Source of the DNA: a virus
Lineage: Duplodnaviria; Heunggongvirae; Uroviricota; Caudoviricetes
Reading direction: 5' to 3' (one strand)
Virus record (IMG/VR): IMGVR_UViG_2563366881_000002
Location: 1 to 43,852 of that record
Length of the DNA stretch: 43,852 bases
How positions within the stretch are numbered: the stretch's first letter is position 1; each line of letters starts with the position of its first letter. Of this stretch, positions 1,165 through 17,287 are shown piece by piece. The translations under genes were made by a program, and so were the position numbers. The notes beneath the pieces are model-generated. The model had not been told where the DNA came from. It saw only the letters and a program-made list of their open reading frames with translations, and did no database searches.

Positions 1165-1391
1165 TTTCTTTCCTCTGTTATGCCATCACCTGCGCTCACC
1201 TGGACAGTATGCAGCGGAGACTGAAGCGCCGCAATGCAAGCTTGCCGTGTTGTGAGGTAAGGAGATTTTGGCTTGGTTGGATCTTTACGTGTTGCCTGTA
1301 GGCGGCCTGTTCGTATCCAGTTGGTGGCGGTTGGTCTGGATATCTTAAGAAACTGACAGGCCTCATCGAGTGTGAGGCTGTATGGCTCCAT
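1020..1391 (-). CDS. xis: excisionase-family DNA-binding protein (HTH_17-like), overlaps int start
   Basis: Internal ATG giving [31 protein letters not shown]..., a typical excisionase/AlpA-type HTH; immediately upstream of int on same strand. Exact extent uncertain. Confidence 0.55.
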
Positions 1392-1696
1392 TATTTCACC
1401 TCTTGCTGTGTCATTGTTGAAAAATGGATACCAGCTCGTTGCTGCCAGACGATCCAACCGAGAGTCATATCCCATGCCATGTATTCGTTATCGCCGTTTT
1501 TTACTCTCCGACGATCTACTAAGTCACCGAAACGCTTTTCCATGAATAATTCATAGGCTTCGCGTTCATCTGGCTCTACTTCCAGAGATACGAGTGCGAT
1601 TTCATAAGCACGGCGCTCAATATCGTCTCGAACCTCTAGGCTGCTGATTCGTTCTTTGATTTCTTTAATCAGTTCTTTATTGGTAAATGTGGTCAT
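1391..1696 (-). CDS. yfdT: hypothetical early protein (YfdT-like, 101 aa)
   Basis: Compact 101-aa ORF, start overlaps stop of upstream gene (ATAATG coupling); same length and position as yfdT in CPS-53-type early operon (recalled, not searched). Confidence 0.45.
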   Translation of the reverse strand: MTTFTNKELIKEIKERISSLEVRDDIERRAYEIALVSLEVEPDEREAYELFMEKRFGDLVDRRRVKNGDNEYMAWDMTLGWIVWQQRAGIHFSTMTQQEVK

Positions 1697-2058
1697 TATG
1701 CTCCAGCCTCCGGTGCTTTTGGCATTACTGCCCAGTGAGTGATATTGACGTTTTCAAGGTCCCCGACCTGAAATGTCCACTGCCATTCTCCGGTTTCTTT
1801 TTGTCCCCAGGTGTACCAGAGAGAACGCCAGCCAATCAGCCAGCCTTCTCCATTAGCATCAAATAACAGAACACTTTCATTTGCTGGTGGCAGTTCAGCT
1901 GACACTGGTATTATTTTGTTTTCCAGTGCCGCACATTTAGCTTCAAGCGCGTCGAATTTACGTAACAGGTACTCAGCATTTGTTTCATTCACTTTCAGAT
2001 CTCGCGGTACACATTTCCCGCGAAGAAACCCTTCCATTTCGAAAACATTCATGCGCAT
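1696..2058 (-). CDS. yfdS: hypothetical early protein (YfdS-like, 120 aa)
   Basis: 120-aa ORF translationally coupled to neighbours; length and position match yfdS of CPS-53-like prophages (recalled). Confidence 0.45.
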   Translation of the reverse strand: MRMNVFEMEGFLRGKCVPRDLKVNETNAEYLLRKFDALEAKCAALENKIIPVSAELPPANESVLLFDANGEGWLIGWRSLWYTWGQKETGEWQWTFQVGDLENVNITHWAVMPKAPEAGA

Positions 2059-2585
2059 TTGCGTAACTCCGATAAATCGTTAAAACGTTCCATAAACATC
2101 CCGTAGACATGACCCGGTGCCAGTGGAATCACGTTGAACATCTCTGTTGCCGGGATGCCTTCCAGTACAGGCCAGAAAGAGCCATCATCAAGCCCGAGAT
2201 CGCGGCGTTCGGTTGCCAGCATGATGAGATCGGCATATTTCACGGGTGTACTCATAACTGGGGGTAACCCGTATTTCTCACGGATTACGGCGTCTATTTT
2301 TTCTTCCATCCGTTTATAGTCAGGAAGAAGGCGTTTCAGCGGCGCGGGGATGTCCTGGCAATACGCTTCTGTTGCATCATGCATTAACGCTTCAAAAGCA
2401 AATTCCTGCGGCACCAGCTGGCTGCAAAGCACCGCATGTTGGGCGACACTGTAGAAGTGTGAAAGATGACCGGCAAAGCGACAGATATTTGAAAGGGAAA
2501 CCGCGATATCGTTAATCACGATGTCGTCTTTATTTATCCTGTCATAATAAAAATGCTTCCCGGAAAAAGTTTTAATAAATGACAT
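2049..2585 (-). CDS. yfdR: HD-domain phosphohydrolase (YfdR-like 5'-deoxynucleotidase), 178 aa
   Basis: Start MSFIKTF with SD GGAGAA; contains HD motif (..ALMHDATEAY..); 178 aa as in YfdR. Confidence 0.7.
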   Translation of the reverse strand: MSFIKTFSGKHFYYDRINKDDIVINDIAVSLSNICRFAGHLSHFYSVAQHAVLCSQLVPQEFAFEALMHDATEAYCQDIPAPLKRLLPDYKRMEEKIDAVIREKYGLPPVMSTPVKYADLIMLATERRDLGLDDGSFWPVLEGIPATEMFNVIPLAPGHVYGMFMERFNDLSELRKCA

Positions 2586-2712
2586 TTTGTTCTCCGCGTA
2601 TATGTGCTGCACCACGCTGAATTCTGGTAAAAGGAAGCCCTCACCATCCGGCGATTATTGAGTCAATTACGTTTCCATAAATGCCCCCGCAGGGGCATTT
2701 GCAGTAATGAAA

Positions 2713-3537
2713 TCAGGCGGTGAAAGTACCAATAAAGGTTTCTACTTTGCTGTCTTTGAATTTCTCAACAAGCAGATCACGAAATTCGTTAGCCATTTCT
2801 TCCTGCACCGCCTCCAGCTGAATAATGCGCAGAACCAGTACAGGACGATCGCCAGTGATAATGCTGAGGCGTAATTTAAATGGACGTTCTTTCAGACCTT
2901 CAAACGGAACGCATTTAAATTCAAATGCCACTGGCATAATATCTTTGGTTTTCGCTTCGACAGACTCCATCAGGGAGCGTTTGCCGCTGAAGTCATTATC
3001 TTCAAAATCAGCGGTCTGGTTTGCTTCAATCGTGATTTTACGGACAGCCGCAGCCGCTTTTGTTGCCTGAATAGCGTCACCATTAGCATCAAAGCCCACA
3101 AGGTAGTCGGCCCAGTCTTCAATCCATTCTGCCAGTGACTTCTGGGAATGACGCTCGCCATTAACAGACAACAGAGCAGAGAACGGTGCTGTCTTTTTCA
3201 GTTTGAGAGTGGAGGTGTTATCTGCGTGACCTGGTTCATCAATAGTACCCAGGTTAAGCACACTGACGGCACGCATATTATCGGCATCGATAAAGCAGCG
3301 GGTGCCTTCATCTGCAAGATCTTTAGAATAACGGGTAAAATCATCGATGCTGGCAGTGGAAAGTGCACCACGGAAACGGAAGCGATTTAAATTAAATTTT
3401 TCCAGATCATGAATGCGGAAATTCTCAGGCAATGCCACAGCATCGGCACCAATCTTACTGATAATTTCATTAACACCCTGAGCAGAAATAAGGGCATGGA
3501 TTTGATTAATTGCGGTTGCGTCTAAGTTCTGAGACAT
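2713..3537 (-). CDS. yfdQ: DUF2303-family phage protein (YfdQ-like), 274 aa
   Basis: 274-aa ORF with SD GAGGA 7 nt upstream; length and neighbourhood match YfdQ (recalled). Confidence 0.6.
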
Positions 3538-3602
3538 AATAAGTCCTCACTATATAAAGATATTCAGTGATGAGATAAATAATCAGTTTATTACGAACGA
3601 TA

Positions 3603-3965
3603 TTAACGACCTGCTGCGCGGAGTTTTCCGTCAGGTTCACCGGCAAGAGTCAGTAATTGTCCCTGGTCTTCCTGCAGAATAGTCAGGCGACCACCGCGAT
3701 TGACATACATCGGCGTTTCGGTGGTGTCTTCTTCGGAAATTTTCCCGCGGTTAGTTGGGCGAACATATGAGAGTTTGTGTTTGATTTTCACACGGTTCTC
3801 ATCAAACGGTTCGATTTCCAGATTGAGTGAGACCTTCCCTTTGGTTTTCGTGTTCATCACACCGGAAGCGACCTCACTGAGAACTGCGCCGATTTTGGTT
3901 TCAAATACGCCGCCGTCCAGCTCCCCGATAAATGCCTGCACATCAGTACTGCGTTCGCTAGCCAT
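3603..3965 (-). CDS. yfdP: hypothetical early protein (YfdP-like), 120 aa
   Basis: Internal ATG at 3965 (MASERSTDVQAF...) preceded by SD GAGGAGCAG; upstream part of the longer ORF-track frame has no coding character. Confidence 0.5.
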   Translation of the reverse strand: MASERSTDVQAFIGELDGGVFETKIGAVLSEVASGVMNTKTKGKVSLNLEIEPFDENRVKIKHKLSYVRPTNRGKISEEDTTETPMYVNRGGRLTILQEDQGQLLTLAGEPDGKLRAAGR

Positions 3966-4459
3966 TTTGCTGCTCCTCATCATATCGACCCTGCAAGGTC
4001 GGTTGGTTTCTCCACAAAACAGAGAAGAACACCTGCGGTGGCAGCCGCCCGGATGGATTGGGTTATGAGCCCGTCGTCCGGTGATGCTCTTCTCTGTTTT
4101 GCAAAAAAGGACGGTACCAGCCGGAAGCAAGGGTACAAACTGGTACCGCCAGGACTACACACAGCATAAAGTTGTGGTGCCGGGTGCCTCCCGGTGCCTG
4201 GCGAAGGTTGCACACCAGGCGGGTGGGTATCCACAGAAGGTCGACTGTCAGCCTCAACCTTAACCCGCGTGCGCTGAGCCGCATTCACCACAACGCTAAG
4301 GATTCTCTCTGGTTGAAAATACTTAGCTGTTATGTGCCTGCTTTTAGCCACATCAGGCGAGGTGGACCTGGTTATTCCCCAACAACAAGGATTCGGTTAA
4401 TCTGGATATCCCCAACAACAATAAGAGTATTCAATGTGATCGCTGAATTAACGGCAGCA

Positions 4460-11595: not shown

Positions 11596-12591
11596 GTGAC
11601 CGTGAGAGCACTACTGACCCCTGAAATTGCCCCGCGTATGGGGATCGTATTGTTCAGGCCAGGTTCAGAGCTGATGCCCCTGTTTATGCAGGGGCGTGTC
11701 CTGCTGGAGCCTGAGCCGGAACGTTATTCATCTTTCGCCAGTGGTGCCGTTCCGGCGGCATCACAACCGCTGGCGGATGATCCTGCCGTTCGGGCCGTGT
11801 TCCGCAATGAGGCAGTGATCCGTCGTGCTGGTGGCGTGGAATGTCTTGAAAGCTGGTTACTTCGTGAAAAGGGCTGTCAGTGGCCTCATTCCGACTGGCA
11901 CAGCGAGAACATGACCACAATGCGACACGCGCCGGGCGCAATCCGTCTGTGTTGGCACTGCGATAACCAGTTGCGTGATCAGTTCACGGAACGGCTGGAA
12001 TCAATGGCAACGGATAACTGTGCCCACTGGGTGTTATCTGTCGTGCGTCGGGATCTCGGTTTTGATGACAGTCACGTAGTGACAATGCCGGAACTGTGCT
12101 GGTGGCTGGTTCGTAATGACCTGGCGGATGCCTTACCGGAAAGTGCAGCCCGTAAGGCACTGAGATTACCGAAGCCGGTTGTGCCGTCTGTCACCCGGGA
12201 GAGTGACCTTGTTCCTTCGGTTCCTGCCACCAGCATTATCCAGGATAAAGCGAAAAAGGTGCTGGCGCTGAAAGTGGATCCAGAGTCGCCGGAGTCTTTT
12301 ATGTTACGCCCAAAACGTCGCCGCTGGGTTAATGAAAAGTACACGCGCTGGGTTAAGACACAGCCGTGTGCATGTTGTGGAAAGCCTGCTGATGATCCCC
12401 ACCACCTGATAGGCCATGGTCAGGGTGGAATGGGTACAAAAGCGCATGACCTCTTTGTGTTGCCTTTGTGCAGAAAGCATCACGACGAGCTGCATGCGGA
12501 TACCGTGGCATTTGAAGAGATGTATGGCTCCCAGCTGGAGCTGATATTTCGTTTTATCGATCATGCGCTGGCAATAGGCGTACTGGCGTAA
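11596..12591 (+). CDS. DUF968-family protein (YdfU-like) with C-terminal HNH-like Cys/His motif
   Basis: C-terminal ..CACCGKPADDPHHLIGHGQGGMGTKAHDLFVLPLCRKHHDELH..; sits immediately upstream of Q as ydfU does in Qin (recalled). Confidence 0.6.
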   Translation: MTVRALLTPEIAPRMGIVLFRPGSELMPLFMQGRVLLEPEPERYSSFASGAVPAASQPLADDPAVRAVFRNEAVIRRAGGVECLESWLLREKGCQWPHSDWHSENMTTMRHAPGAIRLCWHCDNQLRDQFTERLESMATDNCAHWVLSVVRRDLGFDDSHVVTMPELCWWLVRNDLADALPESAARKALRLPKPVVPSVTRESDLVPSVPATSIIQDKAKKVLALKVDPESPESFMLRPKRRRWVNEKYTRWVKTQPCACCGKPADDPHHLIGHGQGGMGTKAHDLFVLPLCRKHHDELHADTVAFEEMYGSQLELIFRFIDHALAIGVLA

Positions 12592-12604: not shown

Positions 12605-13357
12605 ATGAACCTTGAAGCCTTACCAAAATATTACTCCCCAAAATCTCCAAAATTGAGCGATGACGCACCGGCGACAGGCTCAGGTGGTTTAACGATTACG
12701 GATGTGATGGCTGCGCAGGGGATGGTGCAGTCGAAAGCACCGCTTGGGTTTGCCTTATTCCTGGCAAAAGTTGGTGTTCAGGATCCTCAGTTTGCGATTG
12801 AAGGTCTGCTCAATTACGCGATGGCAATGGATAACCCGACATTGAACAAATTGAGTGAAGAAACCCGGTTACAGATCATCCCTTACCTTGTGAGTTTTGC
12901 CTTTGCTGATTATTCCAGGTCTGCGGCAAGTAAGGCTCGCTGTGAGCATTGTGCTGGTACTGGATTTCATAGTGTATTGCGCGAAGTGGTGAAACACTCC
13001 AGAAGCGGGGAATCTGTTATCAAGGAAGAGTGGGTGAAGGAATTATGTCAGCATTGCCATGGTAAGGGAGAAGTCAGCACGGCTTGCAGAGGGTGTAAGG
13101 GTAAAGGCATTGTCCTGGATGAAAAAAGAACCCGGCTTCATGGCACACCTGTTTATAAGATTTGTGGGCGTTGCAATGGAAACCGGTTTAGTCGTTTACC
13201 GACCACACTGGCACGACGTCATGTCCAGAAGCTGGTACCAGACCTGACTGATTATCAGTGGTACAAAGGATATGCAGACGTCATTGATAAACTGGTAACA
13301 AAGTGCTGGCAGGAAGAAGCATTCGCTGAAGCACAATTGAGAAAGGTGACGAGATAA
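12605..13357 (+). CDS. Q: late-gene antitermination protein Q (QuuQ/Q82-like, zinc-binding)
   Basis: 250 aa; CxxC pairs (CEHCAGTG, CQHCHGKG, CRGCKGKG, CGRCNG); followed by candidate pR' and terminator; position between nin-like genes and lysis cassette. Confidence 0.7.
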   Translation: MNLEALPKYYSPKSPKLSDDAPATGSGGLTITDVMAAQGMVQSKAPLGFALFLAKVGVQDPQFAIEGLLNYAMAMDNPTLNKLSEETRLQIIPYLVSFAFADYSRSAASKARCEHCAGTGFHSVLREVVKHSRSGESVIKEEWVKELCQHCHGKGEVSTACRGCKGKGIVLDEKRTRLHGTPVYKICGRCNGNRFSRLPTTLARRHVQKLVPDLTDYQWYKGYADVIDKLVTKCWQEEAFAEAQLRKVTR

Positions 13358-13388
13358 GTGATTTTCACCGAAGATGGCGACATGATGC

Positions 13389-13417
13389 TTGCATTTCTCA
13401 AAAAATATGGATAAGAT
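13389..13417 (+). promoter_or_regulatory. candidate late promoter pR' (TTGCAT-N17-TAAGAT)
   Basis: Sigma70-like -35 TTGCAT (13389-13394) and -10 TAAGAT (13412-13417) with 17-nt spacer, ~30 bp after Q stop. Confidence 0.35.
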
Positions 13418-13462
13418 TTTCCCAACGATGGGCTTTGTATGTCTACCGTTGATGAGTCCAAG

Positions 13463-13494
13463 AACCCGCCGCCGAGCGGGTTAAATTATTTTTT
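13463..13494 (+). terminator. intrinsic terminator (tR'-like) downstream of candidate pR'
   Basis: Stem AACCCGC/GCGGGTT with 6-nt loop followed by AAATTATTTTTTC. Confidence 0.4.
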
Positions 13495-13511
13495 CTTACA
13501 CGGGGATATGG

Positions 13512-14042
13512 ATGTTATACCGAGATCTTTTGCCTATTTTCTCAGAAAGACCCATATTTAAAGCTCCTGAGGCTGAAAGAATACTTCGTGAGCAATATTC
13601 TATCGCCGCCCCCACTCCTGTAATTCAGGAGATTTATTATGGATTGGCAGGTTATGACAGATTTCAGGAGCTTTATGGGGATCTTAATATTGACCAAATC
13701 GAATGGAAATTGATTGAACTTCCCACTAAAAATTTTTTAACTATCGGGGATAATGCTACTTACCCTGATTTTTTGCATGAGGTCGTTGAAGATTTCACAA
13801 CCCGTAAAGGCGATGTATTTATGGATGATGAAATAAAAGCGCATTGGTGTAATTTTGGCACATGGTGTGAACCTCCATTTTTTATAGATCGAGCTTTGCT
13901 GAAAAGTAATACAACAGGGCTTCATTTAATGGAAGGGCATACAAGAGTTGGAACCCTGTTAGGGGCAGTTAAGTATAACTTCGTTAAGCTTGCTAATACT
14001 CATAAAATTTATTATGCGCAAGCAAAAGAATGTATTAAATAA
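13512..14042 (+). CDS. hypothetical protein, AT-rich cargo (176 aa)
   Basis: Clean ORF followed by a strong intrinsic terminator; AT-rich codon usage; no family recognised by eye. Confidence 0.55.
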   Translation: MLYRDLLPIFSERPIFKAPEAERILREQYSIAAPTPVIQEIYYGLAGYDRFQELYGDLNIDQIEWKLIELPTKNFLTIGDNATYPDFLHEVVEDFTTRKGDVFMDDEIKAHWCNFGTWCEPPFFIDRALLKSNTTGLHLMEGHTRVGTLLGAVKYNFVKLANTHKIYYAQAKECIK

Positions 14043-14078
14043 GTTGAGTGAAATTACTGTTTTTTTTTAACAATACTT

Positions 14079-14101
14079 ACCGCGTTCTCGCGGTTTTTTT
14101 A
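14079..14101 (+). terminator. rho-independent terminator
   Basis: ACCGCG-TTCT-CGCGGT hairpin followed by T7. Confidence 0.6.
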
Positions 14102-14223
14102 TAAATTAAACATTGGTGCAGTACGGTAAACACGCTGGTGGTCGTGAATACTGACTTTTTATCTTGCTGGCTTTTTAGACAAGAGTTATTGGTATGTCAT
14201 GTTAACCATGAAGGTAAAAAGAC

Positions 14224-14418
14224 ATGCTAAAACAGCAAGATATGACAGAAACGGCGAAAGTTGTTTTTAATGAATTAAACGGCAAACCGGCAACAGTCGG
14301 GGAGATAGCACAAAACACATACCTTTCACGCGAACGCTGTCAGTTAATACTGACCCAGCTGGTTATGGCGGGGCTGGCAGATTACCAGTTCGGCTGTTAC
14401 AGACGCCTTCAGCAATGA
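14224..14418 (+). CDS. small hypothetical protein (64 aa), possible winged-helix DNA-binding protein
   Basis: Short ORF upstream of methyltransferase; helix-turn-helix-like ..ATVGEIAQNTYLSRERCQLILTQL.. Confidence 0.4.
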   Translation: MLKQQDMTETAKVVFNELNGKPATVGEIAQNTYLSRERCQLILTQLVMAGLADYQFGCYRRLQQ

Positions 14419-14567
14419 AGGGCTTTTAATTTGTGAAAATGGGCGGCTGGTGGGTGTTGGTAGCACCTGCCAGCCATTCGCTCATGCTTACTGGTCACAA
14501 GCGAACCATGGCCCACTGCTTTAGCGCAAAAGCAGAGTGAGCCTACCAGAGTTACGCTTACTGATCC

Positions 14568-15629
14568 ATGAAAAACACTGTAAAAATAAACAGTATTGAT
14601 TTAATCAACGCTGATTGCCTGCATTTTATTCAGTCCCTGCCTGATGATTCCATTGACCTGATTGTTACCGATCCGCCTTACTTCAAGGTGAAACCCAACG
14701 GTTGGGACAATCAGTGGAAAGGGGACGAAGATTACCTTAAGTGGCTGGACCACTGTCTGGCCCAGTTCTGGCGGGTGTTGAAACCTGCCGGAAGCCTTTA
14801 CCTGTTCTGTGGGCATCGCCTGGCATCTGATATTGAGATCATGATGCGTGAACGTTTCAACGTGCTTAACCATATCATCTGGGCGAAGCCGTCCGGACGT
14901 TGGAATGGGTGTAATAAAGAAAGTCTGCGCGCATATTTTCCTGCCACAGAGCGCGTTCTGTTTGCTGAACATTACCGGGGGCCATATCGCGGCAAAAGTG
15001 ACGGCTATGTGGCAAAAGAAAGGGAACTCAAACAGCACATAATGGCACCGCTGATATCGTATTTCAGGGATGCTCGTGCCGAACTGGGTATAACGGCAAA
15101 ACAAATTGCCGAAGCCACAGGTAAGAAAAATATGGTTTCCCACTGGTTTGGTGCCAGTCAGTGGCAGTTGCCGAATGAGGCTGACTACCGGAAGTTACAG
15201 GCACTGTTTTCCCGTATAGCGGCAGAGAAGTTTCAGGAACAACAACTGGAACAACCACACCACCAGTTGGTGGCATCTTATGATTCACTGAATCGCAAAT
15301 ATTCTGAATTGCTGGATGAGTTTAAATCTCTCCGGCGCTATTTCTCCGTATCAGTCTCCGTGCCTTATACCGATGTCTGGATGCATAAACCCGTTCAGTT
15401 CTACCCGGGTAAACATCCGTGTGAGAAACCGGCGGATATGCTCAGGCAAATAATCAATGCCAGTAGTCGACCCGGCGATCTGGTTGCTGATTTCTTTATG
15501 GGATCCGGTTCCACAATAAAAGCAGCAATGGCGCTGGGGCGTCGGGCGTTAGGTGTTGAGCTTGAGACAGAGCGGTTTAATCAGACCATCCAGGAAATCA
15601 GTATGTTATCAGCAAATACAATTTTGTGA
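14568..15629 (+). CDS. DNA methyltransferase, beta-class amino-MTase (N6-adenine or N4-cytosine), orphan
   Basis: Motif IV DPPY (..LIVTDPPYF..) near N-terminus and motif I FxGxG (..FFMGSGST..) near C-terminus; no adjacent restriction endonuclease recognised. Confidence 0.85.
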   Translation: MKNTVKINSIDLINADCLHFIQSLPDDSIDLIVTDPPYFKVKPNGWDNQWKGDEDYLKWLDHCLAQFWRVLKPAGSLYLFCGHRLASDIEIMMRERFNVLNHIIWAKPSGRWNGCNKESLRAYFPATERVLFAEHYRGPYRGKSDGYVAKERELKQHIMAPLISYFRDARAELGITAKQIAEATGKKNMVSHWFGASQWQLPNEADYRKLQALFSRIAAEKFQEQQLEQPHHQLVASYDSLNRKYSELLDEFKSLRRYFSVSVSVPYTDVWMHKPVQFYPGKHPCEKPADMLRQIINASSRPGDLVADFFMGSGSTIKAAMALGRRALGVELETERFNQTIQEISMLSANTIL

Positions 15630-15870
15630 ATTAATTCAATTATTGGTGGGATGTCTGTGCCGTATAATGATTACAGATACAGTGTATCCTGCAATGCAGC
15701 AGGGCTGATGTGGTGGGTTGTACATAGCCTGCAAAGGATTGGCTTCATTAATTCATCGTTGATACAAGCGAGTCACGGTTGACCACGCCAACGGCTCATC
15801 GGTAAAAATCCGACACCGTGTCTTCTTAACTCACTTATTGTTTCCACCCATGTTTTTGGATACCTGCTGT

Positions 15871-15910
15871 AGCTGTCAGATTAGCGCGATAATCTGACAG
15901 CTTTTTTTTT
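15871..15910 (+). terminator. rho-independent terminator
   Basis: 12-bp stem AGCTGTCAGATT...AATCTGACAGCT followed by T9. Confidence 0.55.
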
Positions 15911-16201
15911 ACAACGAATCCTTCTGATCTGCTTTTGCGGGGCTTTTTTGTATCCGCTCCATGCCCGGCGTATAAGCGGAGGTTGGTCAGTTTTCTAAAA
16001 ATTGAAATACCTCACAATTCAGCCAGTTAATGGTTGTTTGTCTGGCGAAGAGTTTGTAAATAAAAAAACGCATGGTGAATCCCCCTAAGCGGCGGGGCGA
16101 ATCAGCAGTCAGTTCTGGGATAATCGCGGGTTCGTATGCTGATGCCGGACTCACCGGGAGGCACCCGGCACCATGCATCATGGTCATCCCCTTGTATGAT
16201 A

Positions 16202-16226
16202 CCCCTCTCCGGAGGGGTATTTTTTG
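16202..16226 (+). terminator. rho-independent terminator
   Basis: CCCCTC-TCCG-GAGGGG hairpin followed by TATTTTTT. Confidence 0.55.
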
Positions 16227-16658
16227 GATAAAAAAGCCCGCGCTGGGAGGCACGGGCGGCAAGGAATAAAACGTGAAGAAATTTTCACAGGCGCATAATA
16301 ATCCGATGTTGCCAGATTTTGCAACTGCATCATCTGGTTATTATGTGAGCTGGAAAATCAGATTCTGTATGGACTGAAGCCATGCTGTTATTTAGGGCCA
16401 AAGAGCTGGCTTTTTCCCGCCTTCTCTCCAGTAACGATTAATGAGAAAAGAATGAAATGCTTTTCCTGGGGAGGAGGGCAGTAGAAAAAAGAACCCGCCA
16501 GCAAAAATATGGGGGATGAACAGCTTTTGCTACTCAGGTTGCTGGCGGGTATGGTTCTTCATGAAATAAGAATGTTACGCGGTATTTTTAATGAAAATGA
16601 TAATTATTGTCAATTGGTTGTGCGTATTTTTTCATACATGACTGGTAAAGGTGATTCA

Positions 16659-16692
16659 GGCCATCAGAGTTTTGCTGATGGCCTTTTTTCTT
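16659..16692 (+). terminator. rho-independent terminator immediately upstream of holin
   Basis: GGCCATCAG-AGTTTTG-CTGATGGCC followed by TTTTTTC. Confidence 0.55.
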
Positions 16693-16722
16693 TCCGGTAG
16701 CACAGGTCTGTTGGGGCGGGAT

Positions 16723-16938
16723 ATGTATCAGATGGAAAAAATATCAACAGGCATTGCCTACGGCACCTCCGCAGGCAGTGCTGGCTACTGGTTTTTACAA
16801 TGGCTTGATCAGGTTAGTCCGTCTCAGTGGGCTGCGATTGGTGTACTGGGAAGTCTGGTTCTGGGCTTTCTGACTTATCTGACGAATCTGTACTTCAAAA
16901 TCAGAGAAGACAGAAGAAAGGCTGCGAGAGGAGAGTAA
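16723..16938 (+). CDS. holin, phage-21 S21 / EssQ-type pinholin with dual start (71/68 aa)
   Basis: [71 protein letters not shown] closely matches recalled S21; two in-frame ATGs (16723, 16732) give the holin/antiholin dual-start motif. Confidence 0.85.
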
Positions 16939-16942
16939 TATA

Positions 16943-17287
16943 ATGGTCCAAAACTATGAAATGATTGTGAAAGGGATCCGCAATTTTGAGAATAAAGTTA
17001 CGGTAACTTTAGCATTACAGGACAAAGAACGCTTTGACGGTGAAATTTTTGACCTGGACATCTCGCTGGACCGTGTTGAAGGTGCCGCGCTGGAGTTTTA
17101 TGAGGCAGCAGCCAGAAGGAGCATCAGACAGGTCTTCCTGGATGTTGCTGCCGGGTTATGTGGAGGGGATGAGCAGTCGCCGGAAAAGCGCCCCATAATT
17201 TTAGAGGCGCAGAGTGTGTGGATAACCTACAAAGGAAAACTGCCGGGAAGAATTACTGGTTCACTGAAGACTCCGCCGAAATGGTAA
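16943..17287 (+). CDS. hypothetical protein between holin and endolysin (YdfR/DUF1327-like by position)
   Basis: 114-aa ORF starting 5 nt after holin stop; Qin has ydfR in the same slot (recalled, sequence not verified). Confidence 0.45.
   Translation: MVQNYEMIVKGIRNFENKVTVTLALQDKERFDGEIFDLDISLDRVEGAALEFYEAAARRSIRQVFLDVAAGLCGGDEQSPEKRPIILEAQSVWITYKGKLPGRITGSLKTPPKW

Follow-up and report, generated by a model that had tools for sequence, protein, structure and literature searches.

The stretch of DNA analysed here (the window, 43,852 nucleotides (nt) long; IMG/VR record IMGVR_UViG_2563366881_000002) is a lambdoid prophage with 100% identical copies in many Escherichia coli chromosomes. Between its antiterminator gene Q and its lysis genes it carries an open reading frame (ORF) of 353 codons which is, by sequence, an uncharacterised member of the M.EcoGII family of N6-adenine DNA methyltransferases, and which is preceded by a 64-codon ORF and a structured leader RNA. 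We consider it probable that this gene encodes an orphan enzyme with little or no sequence specificity, expressed late in dependence on Q, which methylates the DNA of the phage in self-protection against restriction. A late, self-protective methylase was one of the possibilities raised in an earlier note made from the sequence alone, and it is the best-supported reading and essentially the published view of the family, with the timing drawn from the position of the gene. M.EcoGII and SUPREM already serve as laboratory tools and the family is a known anti-restriction device of phages, so that little is gained from the gene as such. The leader, with its variable small upstream ORFs, appears to be previously undescribed and to be the only possibly new element of the locus.

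The methyltransferase and its place in the late operon

Both ORFs were recovered on the plus strand at the coordinates proposed for them earlier (Table 1). The 353-residue protein matches PF01555 (N6_N4_Mtase) with E=4.6e-42 and 144.9 bits, well above the cutoff of 26.7, over residues 29-340. Motif IV, TDPPYF, occupies residues 34-39 (nt ~14667-14684; DPPY itself at 35-38) and stands N-terminal to motif I, FFMGSGST, at residues 309-316 (nt ~15492-15515; FxGxG at 310-314), so that the beta-class architecture suggested by the earlier note is borne out. Both motifs are invariant in seven homologues, down to 42% identity, and the insert of ~170 residues between them is the target-recognition region, which contains a helix-turn-helix (HTH). 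The closest solved structures in the PDB are beta-class enzymes (M.BceJIV-like chains, M.RsrI and M.MboIIA; E 1e-24 to 1e-16), which align over the two halves of the catalytic core only and not over the central ~170 residues, and the PADLOC profile MTase_II matches with E=8e-151.

The window enzyme is identical to M.EcoGII at 280 of 348 positions (80%) over the full length, target-recognition region included and with two one-residue gaps, where the M.EcoGII sequence is a machine-read version from the supplementary table of PMC11551740 in which a few positions may be optical character recognition errors. The comparison was cross-checked via the methyltransferase of phage 1720a-02, which is 93% identical to M.EcoGII; that phage had been named as carrier of a very similar enzyme (PMC5778455). 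The window protein is also 97% identical to orf48 of phage SfV and ~98% identical to its counterparts in phages cdtI and mEp460. M.EcoGII is a 349-residue beta-class enzyme encoded on a prophage of E. coli O104:H4 which methylates adenine in any context, is silent in the lysogen and, once expressed, is harmful and slows growth (PMC5778455). The reconstructed ancestor Anc291 and SUPREM, to which the window enzyme is 88% and 69% identical, are likewise reported as non-site-specific (PMC11551740). These identity values suggest that the window enzyme is bracketed within a non-site-specific clade, and this orthologue would then lack sequence specificity as well.

The architecture of the window enzyme is that of M.EcoGII and M.EcoGI (both from prophages of E. 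coli O104:H4 C227-11; PMC5778455), Anc291 and SUPREM, namely DPPY, a four-helix HTH target region and FxGxG. It shares with M.EcoGII a length of ~350 residues and a lambdoid prophage origin, and differs from it in its last ~6 residues. The published work on M.EcoGII and SUPREM (PMC5778455, PMC11551740) contains no description of the Q-to-lysis slot, of the leader or of the small ORF in front of it. Orphan enzymes of the CcrM and YhdJ type have the beta-class core and the orphan status in common with the window enzyme, but the corresponding NCBIfam matches are far under cutoff, and those enzymes recognise specific sites and are chromosomal or under cell-cycle control, whereas the window enzyme is phage-borne, lies in a late operon and has another target-recognition region.

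For the analysis of synteny we used 80 loci, one per species-level genome, encoding relatives 61-92% identical to the window methyltransferase, and added the records of phages SfV, mEp460, Morganella IME1369_02 and Hafnia yong2. The order DUF968, Q, a variable segment, the optional small ORF, leader, methyltransferase, a second variable segment, holin and lysozyme recurs across genera of Enterobacterales and in the four phages. Searches with three Q queries placed a Q homologue upstream of the methyltransferase in all four loci of enterobacterial phages and in ~35 of the 80 at species level, and DUF968, the usual flank of Q, was detected in most of the species-level loci in which Q was not. 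In the window Q marks the start of the late operon, and with DUF968 and Q upstream and holin and lysozyme downstream the late-operon placement given earlier is confirmed. The methyltransferase and its leader occur in 1238 of 5426 complete E. coli genomes (~23%), and phage 1720a-02 has Q, small ORF, leader and methyltransferase arranged as in the window, directly upstream of stx2A. Papers dealing with the region of pR' and with the co-transfer of lambdoid genes make no mention of the methyltransferase.

A conserved leader and a frequent small neighbour

The distance between the small ORF and the methyltransferase is nearly constant in the species-level loci (147-154 nt), because a conserved non-coding element, the leader, fills it. 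The leader is a steadier companion of the methyltransferase than the 64-codon ORF and is intact in loci that have no small ORF. Window positions 14400-14600 fold with a minimum free energy (MFE) of -69.5 kcal/mol (z=-3.85). We aligned 59 distinct leaders and tested on this alignment a hand-built structure of four helices, P1-P4 (Table 1). Across the 59 leaders 83% of cells are paired, against 27-53% in control structures whose partners were slid by one to three columns, and double-sided changes occur in 16 pairs, compared with 7.5 in column shuffles, a number reached in 0 of 500 shuffles. One pair of columns (71:97) shows four pair types (CG 29, AU 10, UA 8, UG 4), and RNAalifold independently recovers P1, P2 and P4. 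An alternative helix, P5, which covers the 17 nt 5' of the ATG, is present in the MFE fold, is paired in 79% of cells over the 59 leaders, has four covarying pairs and is mutually exclusive with the better-supported P3. No Shine-Dalgarno sequence precedes the ATG of the methyltransferase, and the leader may act in the translational control of this gene. A GATC, the site of Dam, lies at 14563-14566 (-5 to -2 of the ATG) within a near-invariant TGATCYATG of the aligned leaders, where it forms the 3' end of the proposed P5.

A covariance model trained on this alignment gave 57 matches in 673 kb of species-level loci, each ending at the start of a methyltransferase and none elsewhere; two of the 57, and one further match in phage 1720a-02, lie outside the training loci. 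Rfam 15 has no match in 14419-14567 at E<=1, and in 13200-17000 it yields only STnc100 and a weak SgrS-like match elsewhere. We found no published description of the leader in a literature search of incomplete coverage. In most loci of Enterobacteriaceae a GC-rich hairpin with a U-rich tail stands 5' of the leader, irrespective of the upstream gene, and in several of them (for example L015, L021, L040, L057 and L074) it is a canonical terminator; we infer a role for the corresponding hairpin of the window (14406-14431). These hairpins were judged by eye, as an automated terminator test (6 of 59) was confounded by extra pairings in the MFE folds.

Some loci depart from this plan. In the Xenorhabdus and Photorhabdus loci (L060-L086) the ~100 nt upstream of the methyltransferase hold a shorter leader with a P2-like hairpin and no P3 or P4, and in several of them the usual ATG position reads ATG-GAA-TAG, a two-codon mini-ORF, while the methyltransferase apparently starts at a GTG a few codons downstream. 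Among the IMG/VR contigs, L097, L125, L137, L155, L160, L169, L173 and L183 keep the first ~21 nt of the leader and mostly the small ORF, with the methyltransferase gone, and L112, L141, L166 and L178 keep the leader through the P2 hairpin, followed by an unrelated ORF of 237 codons. In viral contigs without the methyltransferase the leader stub is joined to sequence visibly similar to window positions 16041-16229.

The small ORF belongs to phrog_331, a family of ~320 protein clusters in Enterobacterales whose members are often named "TrmB family transcriptional regulator" in the source databases. The earlier description of its product as winged-helix-like is borne out in part, by weak profile matches and not by structure. 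The window protein matches TrmB, MarR_2 and DprA_WH under the Pfam cutoffs (E 0.007-0.04). Among 32 diverse homologues DprA_WH is matched by 17 (best E 3.7e-6) and TrmB by 14, and nearly all other weak matches are to winged-helix families too. The conserved pattern consists of an N-terminal MLKQxDMTxxA, a variable middle and a near-invariant RCQLxLTQLxxAGL helix, as would be expected of the recognition helix of a winged HTH. The AlphaFold2 model is weak (predicted local distance difference test 72, predicted template-modelling score 0.49), and structure searches with it returned no winged-HTH proteins, the best matches being helical bundles resembling carrier proteins. A winged-helix fold is plausible.

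Of the 78 species-level loci with sufficient flank, 56 have the small ORF directly 5' of the methyltransferase, as do distant phages, while in the other 22 (28%) different genes or Q itself take its place and the full leader and methyltransferase are kept. It is carried by 109 of 120 viral loci, and in ~12 of 115 informative viral contigs with a leader start the methyltransferase has been lost or replaced and most still have the small ORF. The small ORF is therefore a frequent neighbour that is dispensable in both directions. In mEp460 the methyltransferase is 98% identical to that of the window and the small ORF 52%, whereas in Stx2a phages the corresponding values are 80% and 92%; judging from these identities, the two genes recombine independently and their divergence is decoupled.

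Proposed mechanism and alternatives to it

In a lysogen, the methyltransferase would lie behind a tR'-like terminator and would not be transcribed. Upon induction, RNA polymerase modified by Q would read through the terminators into the gene, and the silence of M.EcoGII in lysogens would be explained by the gene riding the Q-dependent late transcript. The enzyme would methylate replicating phage DNA shortly before packaging, and the progeny DNA would then resist many adenine-methylation-sensitive restriction systems in the next host. Blanket adenine methylation would harm the host, so that expression would be kept tight. A first gate would be transcriptional, given by the position behind Q-dependent terminators, and a probable second gate would be translational, given by the structured leader of ~150 nt which abuts an ATG without a Shine-Dalgarno sequence. 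The probably winged-helix 64-residue protein would be an accessory late gene product, the usual companion of the cassette and not required.

Several points weigh against this interpretation. The activity of this orthologue is predicted from its relatives, and its 20% divergence from M.EcoGII might in principle change its specificity. A crude sigma-70 scan gave no plus-strand promoter in 13200-16800, and a candidate pR' read by eye (TTGCAT-17-TAAGAT, ~13389-13417) falls under the threshold of that scan; the result is compatible with an internal promoter, and late-only expression, likely as it appears, rests on position. In the leader, the start-sequestering P5 has weaker covariation than P1-P4, and neither P5 nor P1/P3 dominates in single-sequence ensembles, where the mean pairing probability of P5 is 0.30. 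Finally, leader identity is 0.79 both within and between loci with and without the small ORF, so that the two classes are indistinguishable and nothing ties the small protein to the leader; no leader column tracks the presence of the small ORF significantly after correction for multiple testing.

Broad-spectrum DNA modification that is toxic to the host is under tight, often post-transcriptional control in temperate phages, and the mom gene of phage Mu depends on Com, a zinc-finger translational activator. The covariance model matches Aeromonas phage PhAER-2 (L004) with 35 bits, and the leader homologue there (2716-2876) retains P2 with a wholly different sequence. It is followed by an unannotated plus-strand ORF (2862-3050) that encodes a zinc ribbon of the Mu Com type (PF10122, E=2.1e-8) and overlaps the start of an M.EcoGII-like methyltransferase (3001-4056), and the AUG of the leader model aligns with the start of this Com-like ORF and not with that of the methyltransferase. 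One could read the leader accordingly as an undescribed family of cis-regulatory RNAs in temperate phages of Enterobacterales and Aeromonas, switching between P1/P3 and the start-occluding P5 and so gating translation of the toxic methyltransferase, with small proteins of unrelated fold (the 64-residue winged-helix protein, the Com zinc ribbon in Aeromonas) as interchangeable trans-activators. We regard this as rather unlikely.

It is unlikely, too, that the 64-residue protein of the window acts as an analogue of Com, binding the leader in trans and lifting an inhibitory helix off the start codon; synthesis of the toxic enzyme would then have to wait until the small protein has built up. The position of the small ORF directly upstream at its near-constant distance in 56 of 78 loci, the covarying helices of the leader and the possible pairing of the 17 nt before an ATG without a Shine-Dalgarno sequence would fit such a role, as would the Com-type ORF between leader copy and methyltransferase in PhAER-2. 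Mu-like prophages likewise have Com homologues upstream of alpha-class adenine methyltransferases that are non-specific (Hin1523, Hia5, Nma1821; PMC3299994). Both these systems and com-mom of Mu share with the window a broad-spectrum, host-toxic modification expressed late with a small ORF immediately upstream, and RNA structure surrounds the start of the modification gene in Mu com-mom as it does at the window leader. However, the window protein has no match to PF10122 and no paired CxxC motifs, and its weak matches are to winged-helix families and not to zinc ribbons. Com overlaps the modification gene, while the small ORF of the window lies ~150 nt away from the methyltransferase and is dispensable in many loci. 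Com activates translation, which for the window protein would be an analogy alone, and the window enzyme is beta-class, neither alpha-class like those of the Mu-like prophages nor Mom. Against a Com-like role there are, in addition, the 22 of 78 loci that keep leader and methyltransferase without the small ORF, the equal similarity of leaders within and between the two classes with no associated column, the independent divergence of the two genes in mEp460 and the Stx2a phages, the 12 viral loci that have a 5' stub of the leader but no methyltransferase and mostly retain the small ORF, and the activity of cloned M.EcoGII without any small protein (PMC5778455).

It is very unlikely that the window enzyme is sequence-specific in the manner of Dam and serves phage gene regulation or packaging, as opposed to broad anti-restriction. 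Its target-recognition region does differ from that of M.EcoGII at about a fifth of positions, but proteins shown by experiment to be non-specific bracket it (80%, 88% and 69% identity), and all members of the family reported so far are non-specific (PMC11551740).

We consider it highly improbable that the small protein serves the methyltransferase as a subunit for specificity or targeting and directs it to particular DNA or RNA substrates. The two genes are adjacent, M.EcoGII methylates RNA in vitro (PMC5778455, PMC11551740), and there is a precedent in an MT-A70 methyltransferase of Stx phages which needs the upstream-encoded PNB-2 for methylation of 16S rRNA (PMC10810198). This precedent comes from another enzyme family (MT-A70, with DPPW) and another region of the genome, M.EcoGII alone is fully active and non-specific, 28% of loci have no small ORF, and the sequence divergence of the two genes is decoupled. 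The MT-A70 enzyme of PMC10810198 was considered as a candidate for the same system and rejected on grounds of its family and genome region, and is an analogy only.

The earlier note had also proposed that the methyltransferase might be the modification component of a restriction-modification-like module together with the 176-residue protein encoded upstream. That protein has a conserved motif, GTWxEPPxFIxR...GLHLxEGHTRxGxLLG, is weakly ParB/Srx-like and has no nuclease-family match, and no nuclease family was detected in the neighbouring ORFs with Pfam, NCBIfam, PHROGs or PADLOC, so that the remark that no cognate endonuclease is recognisable holds for the neighbourhood. SfV has no counterpart of its ORF: the homology between the two sequences stops at ~13472 and starts again at ~14090. 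Flanked as it is by terminator-like hairpins at both ends, the ORF behaves like an inserted cassette. None of the 80 species-level methyltransferase loci has it, and 90 of the 5426 complete E. coli genomes carry it, compared with 1238 for the methyltransferase and leader. Its homologues (47-59% identity) always lie directly after Q: in Hafnia the methyltransferase follows farther downstream, and in prophages of the Klebsiella oxytoca type the holin comes directly after the homologue and there is no methyltransferase. The 176-codon ORF is thus an independent moron cassette unrelated to the methyltransferase. With the distributions of the two genes contradicting it and no nuclease match, a module in which the 176-residue protein is the nuclease and the methyltransferase its modification subunit almost certainly does not exist here. 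The beta-class methyltransferases of Type II restriction-modification systems (M.RsrI, M.MboIIA, M.PvuII) have the fold and motifs of the catalytic core in common with the window enzyme, but the window has no endonuclease gene and its enzyme is predicted to be without specificity. The C-protein controllers of such systems have an HTH of the Xre type, whereas the small ORF of the window matches winged-helix families.

The surrounding region and the meaning of the locus for lambdoid phages

The features discussed are collected in Table 1.

Table 1. Features of the window between the DUF968 gene and the hairpin downstream of the methyltransferase, with the helices of the leader.
Feature	Position	Strand	Basis or description
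DUF968/HNH-like gene	11596-12591	+	PF06147, E=1.5e-80; weak HNHc_6 match just under cutoff
Antiterminator Q, 250 aa	12605-13357	+	PF03589 Antiterm, E=1.4e-53; RefSeq "antitermination protein"
tR'-like intrinsic terminator, AACCCGCCGCCGAGCGGGTT then T-rich tail	13463-13495	+	Terminator scan; hairpin 13463-13482, just 3' of Q
176-aa ORF, phrog_8867	13512-14042	+	Function unassigned in PHROGs
Terminator-like hairpin (14079-14094) and T-run closing the 176-aa cassette	14079-14101	+	Terminator scan
64-aa ORF, phrog_331	14224-14418	+	phrog_331, E=5.8e-35
Hairpin CCTTCAgcaaTGAAGG over the small ORF stop codon, then U-rich stretch	14406-14431	+	Terminator scan
Structured leader RNA within the 149-nt spacer	14419-14567	+	Fold, alignment, covariance model; conserved structured part 14435-14567
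P1	14440-14444 with 14511-14515		UGGGC:GCCCA
P2 hairpin	14445-14456 with 14464-14475		12 bp
P3	14477-14482 with 14500-14505		UUCGCU:AGCGAA
P4 hairpin	14516-14522 with 14529-14535		CUGCUUU:AAAGCAG
P5, alternative helix	14493-14506 with 14551-14566		nt -17 to -2; over 17 nt 5' of the ATG
353-aa beta-class N6-adenine DNA methyltransferase, M.EcoGII family	14568-15629	+	PF01555, M.EcoGII-family identities
Strong terminator-like hairpin, 13-bp stem and T9	15871-15911	+	Terminator scan; hairpin 15871-15902, 3' of methyltransferase

The DUF968 gene, which lies directly 5' of Q in the window and in most related loci, is a conserved gene of the nin region and no restriction partner of the methyltransferase. 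In the record of SfV two rho-independent terminators are annotated, one between Q and orf47 and one downstream of orf48. The start of the hairpin at 13463 is homologous to the start of the first of these, with the match breaking off within the hairpin, and the window hairpin may work as tR'; the second is at the position equivalent to the hairpin at 15871. About 0.7 kb of non-coding sequence separates the latter hairpin from the holin gene, and the holin, lysozyme and Rz genes lie 3' of it. This stretch contains, between methyltransferase and holin, a full-length plus-strand match to the small RNA family STnc100 of Rfam (RF02076) at 16041-16229 (114.5 bits against a gathering threshold of 47, E=1.6e-25), which ends at a terminator-like hairpin (16198-16221). 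Stx phages have tRNAs in the slot between Q and the lysis genes, and ARAGORN found no tRNA gene in the whole window. In Rosenbergiella collisarenosi (L051) an 823-residue protein with an NPPY motif is encoded upstream of the leader (1207-3678, plus strand); it is apparently a large fused enzyme of the methyltransferase/restriction type, and indicates that the slot has room for another modification or restriction gene besides one of the M.EcoGII type.

The M.EcoGII family can now be assigned to the moron slot that separates Q from the lysis cassette, which is where Shiga-toxin phages have stx. The leader does not change the classification of the locus, which is a member of the M.EcoGII type and not a hidden restriction-modification system, but offers a testable candidate for the restraint of a cell-toxic enzyme and could be the reason why the native gene has been reported as hard to express. 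With the gene present in ~23% of complete E. coli genomes, the DNA of induced lambdoid phages may often be heavily adenine-methylated, which would bear on phage host range, on transduction and on the reading of methylomes.

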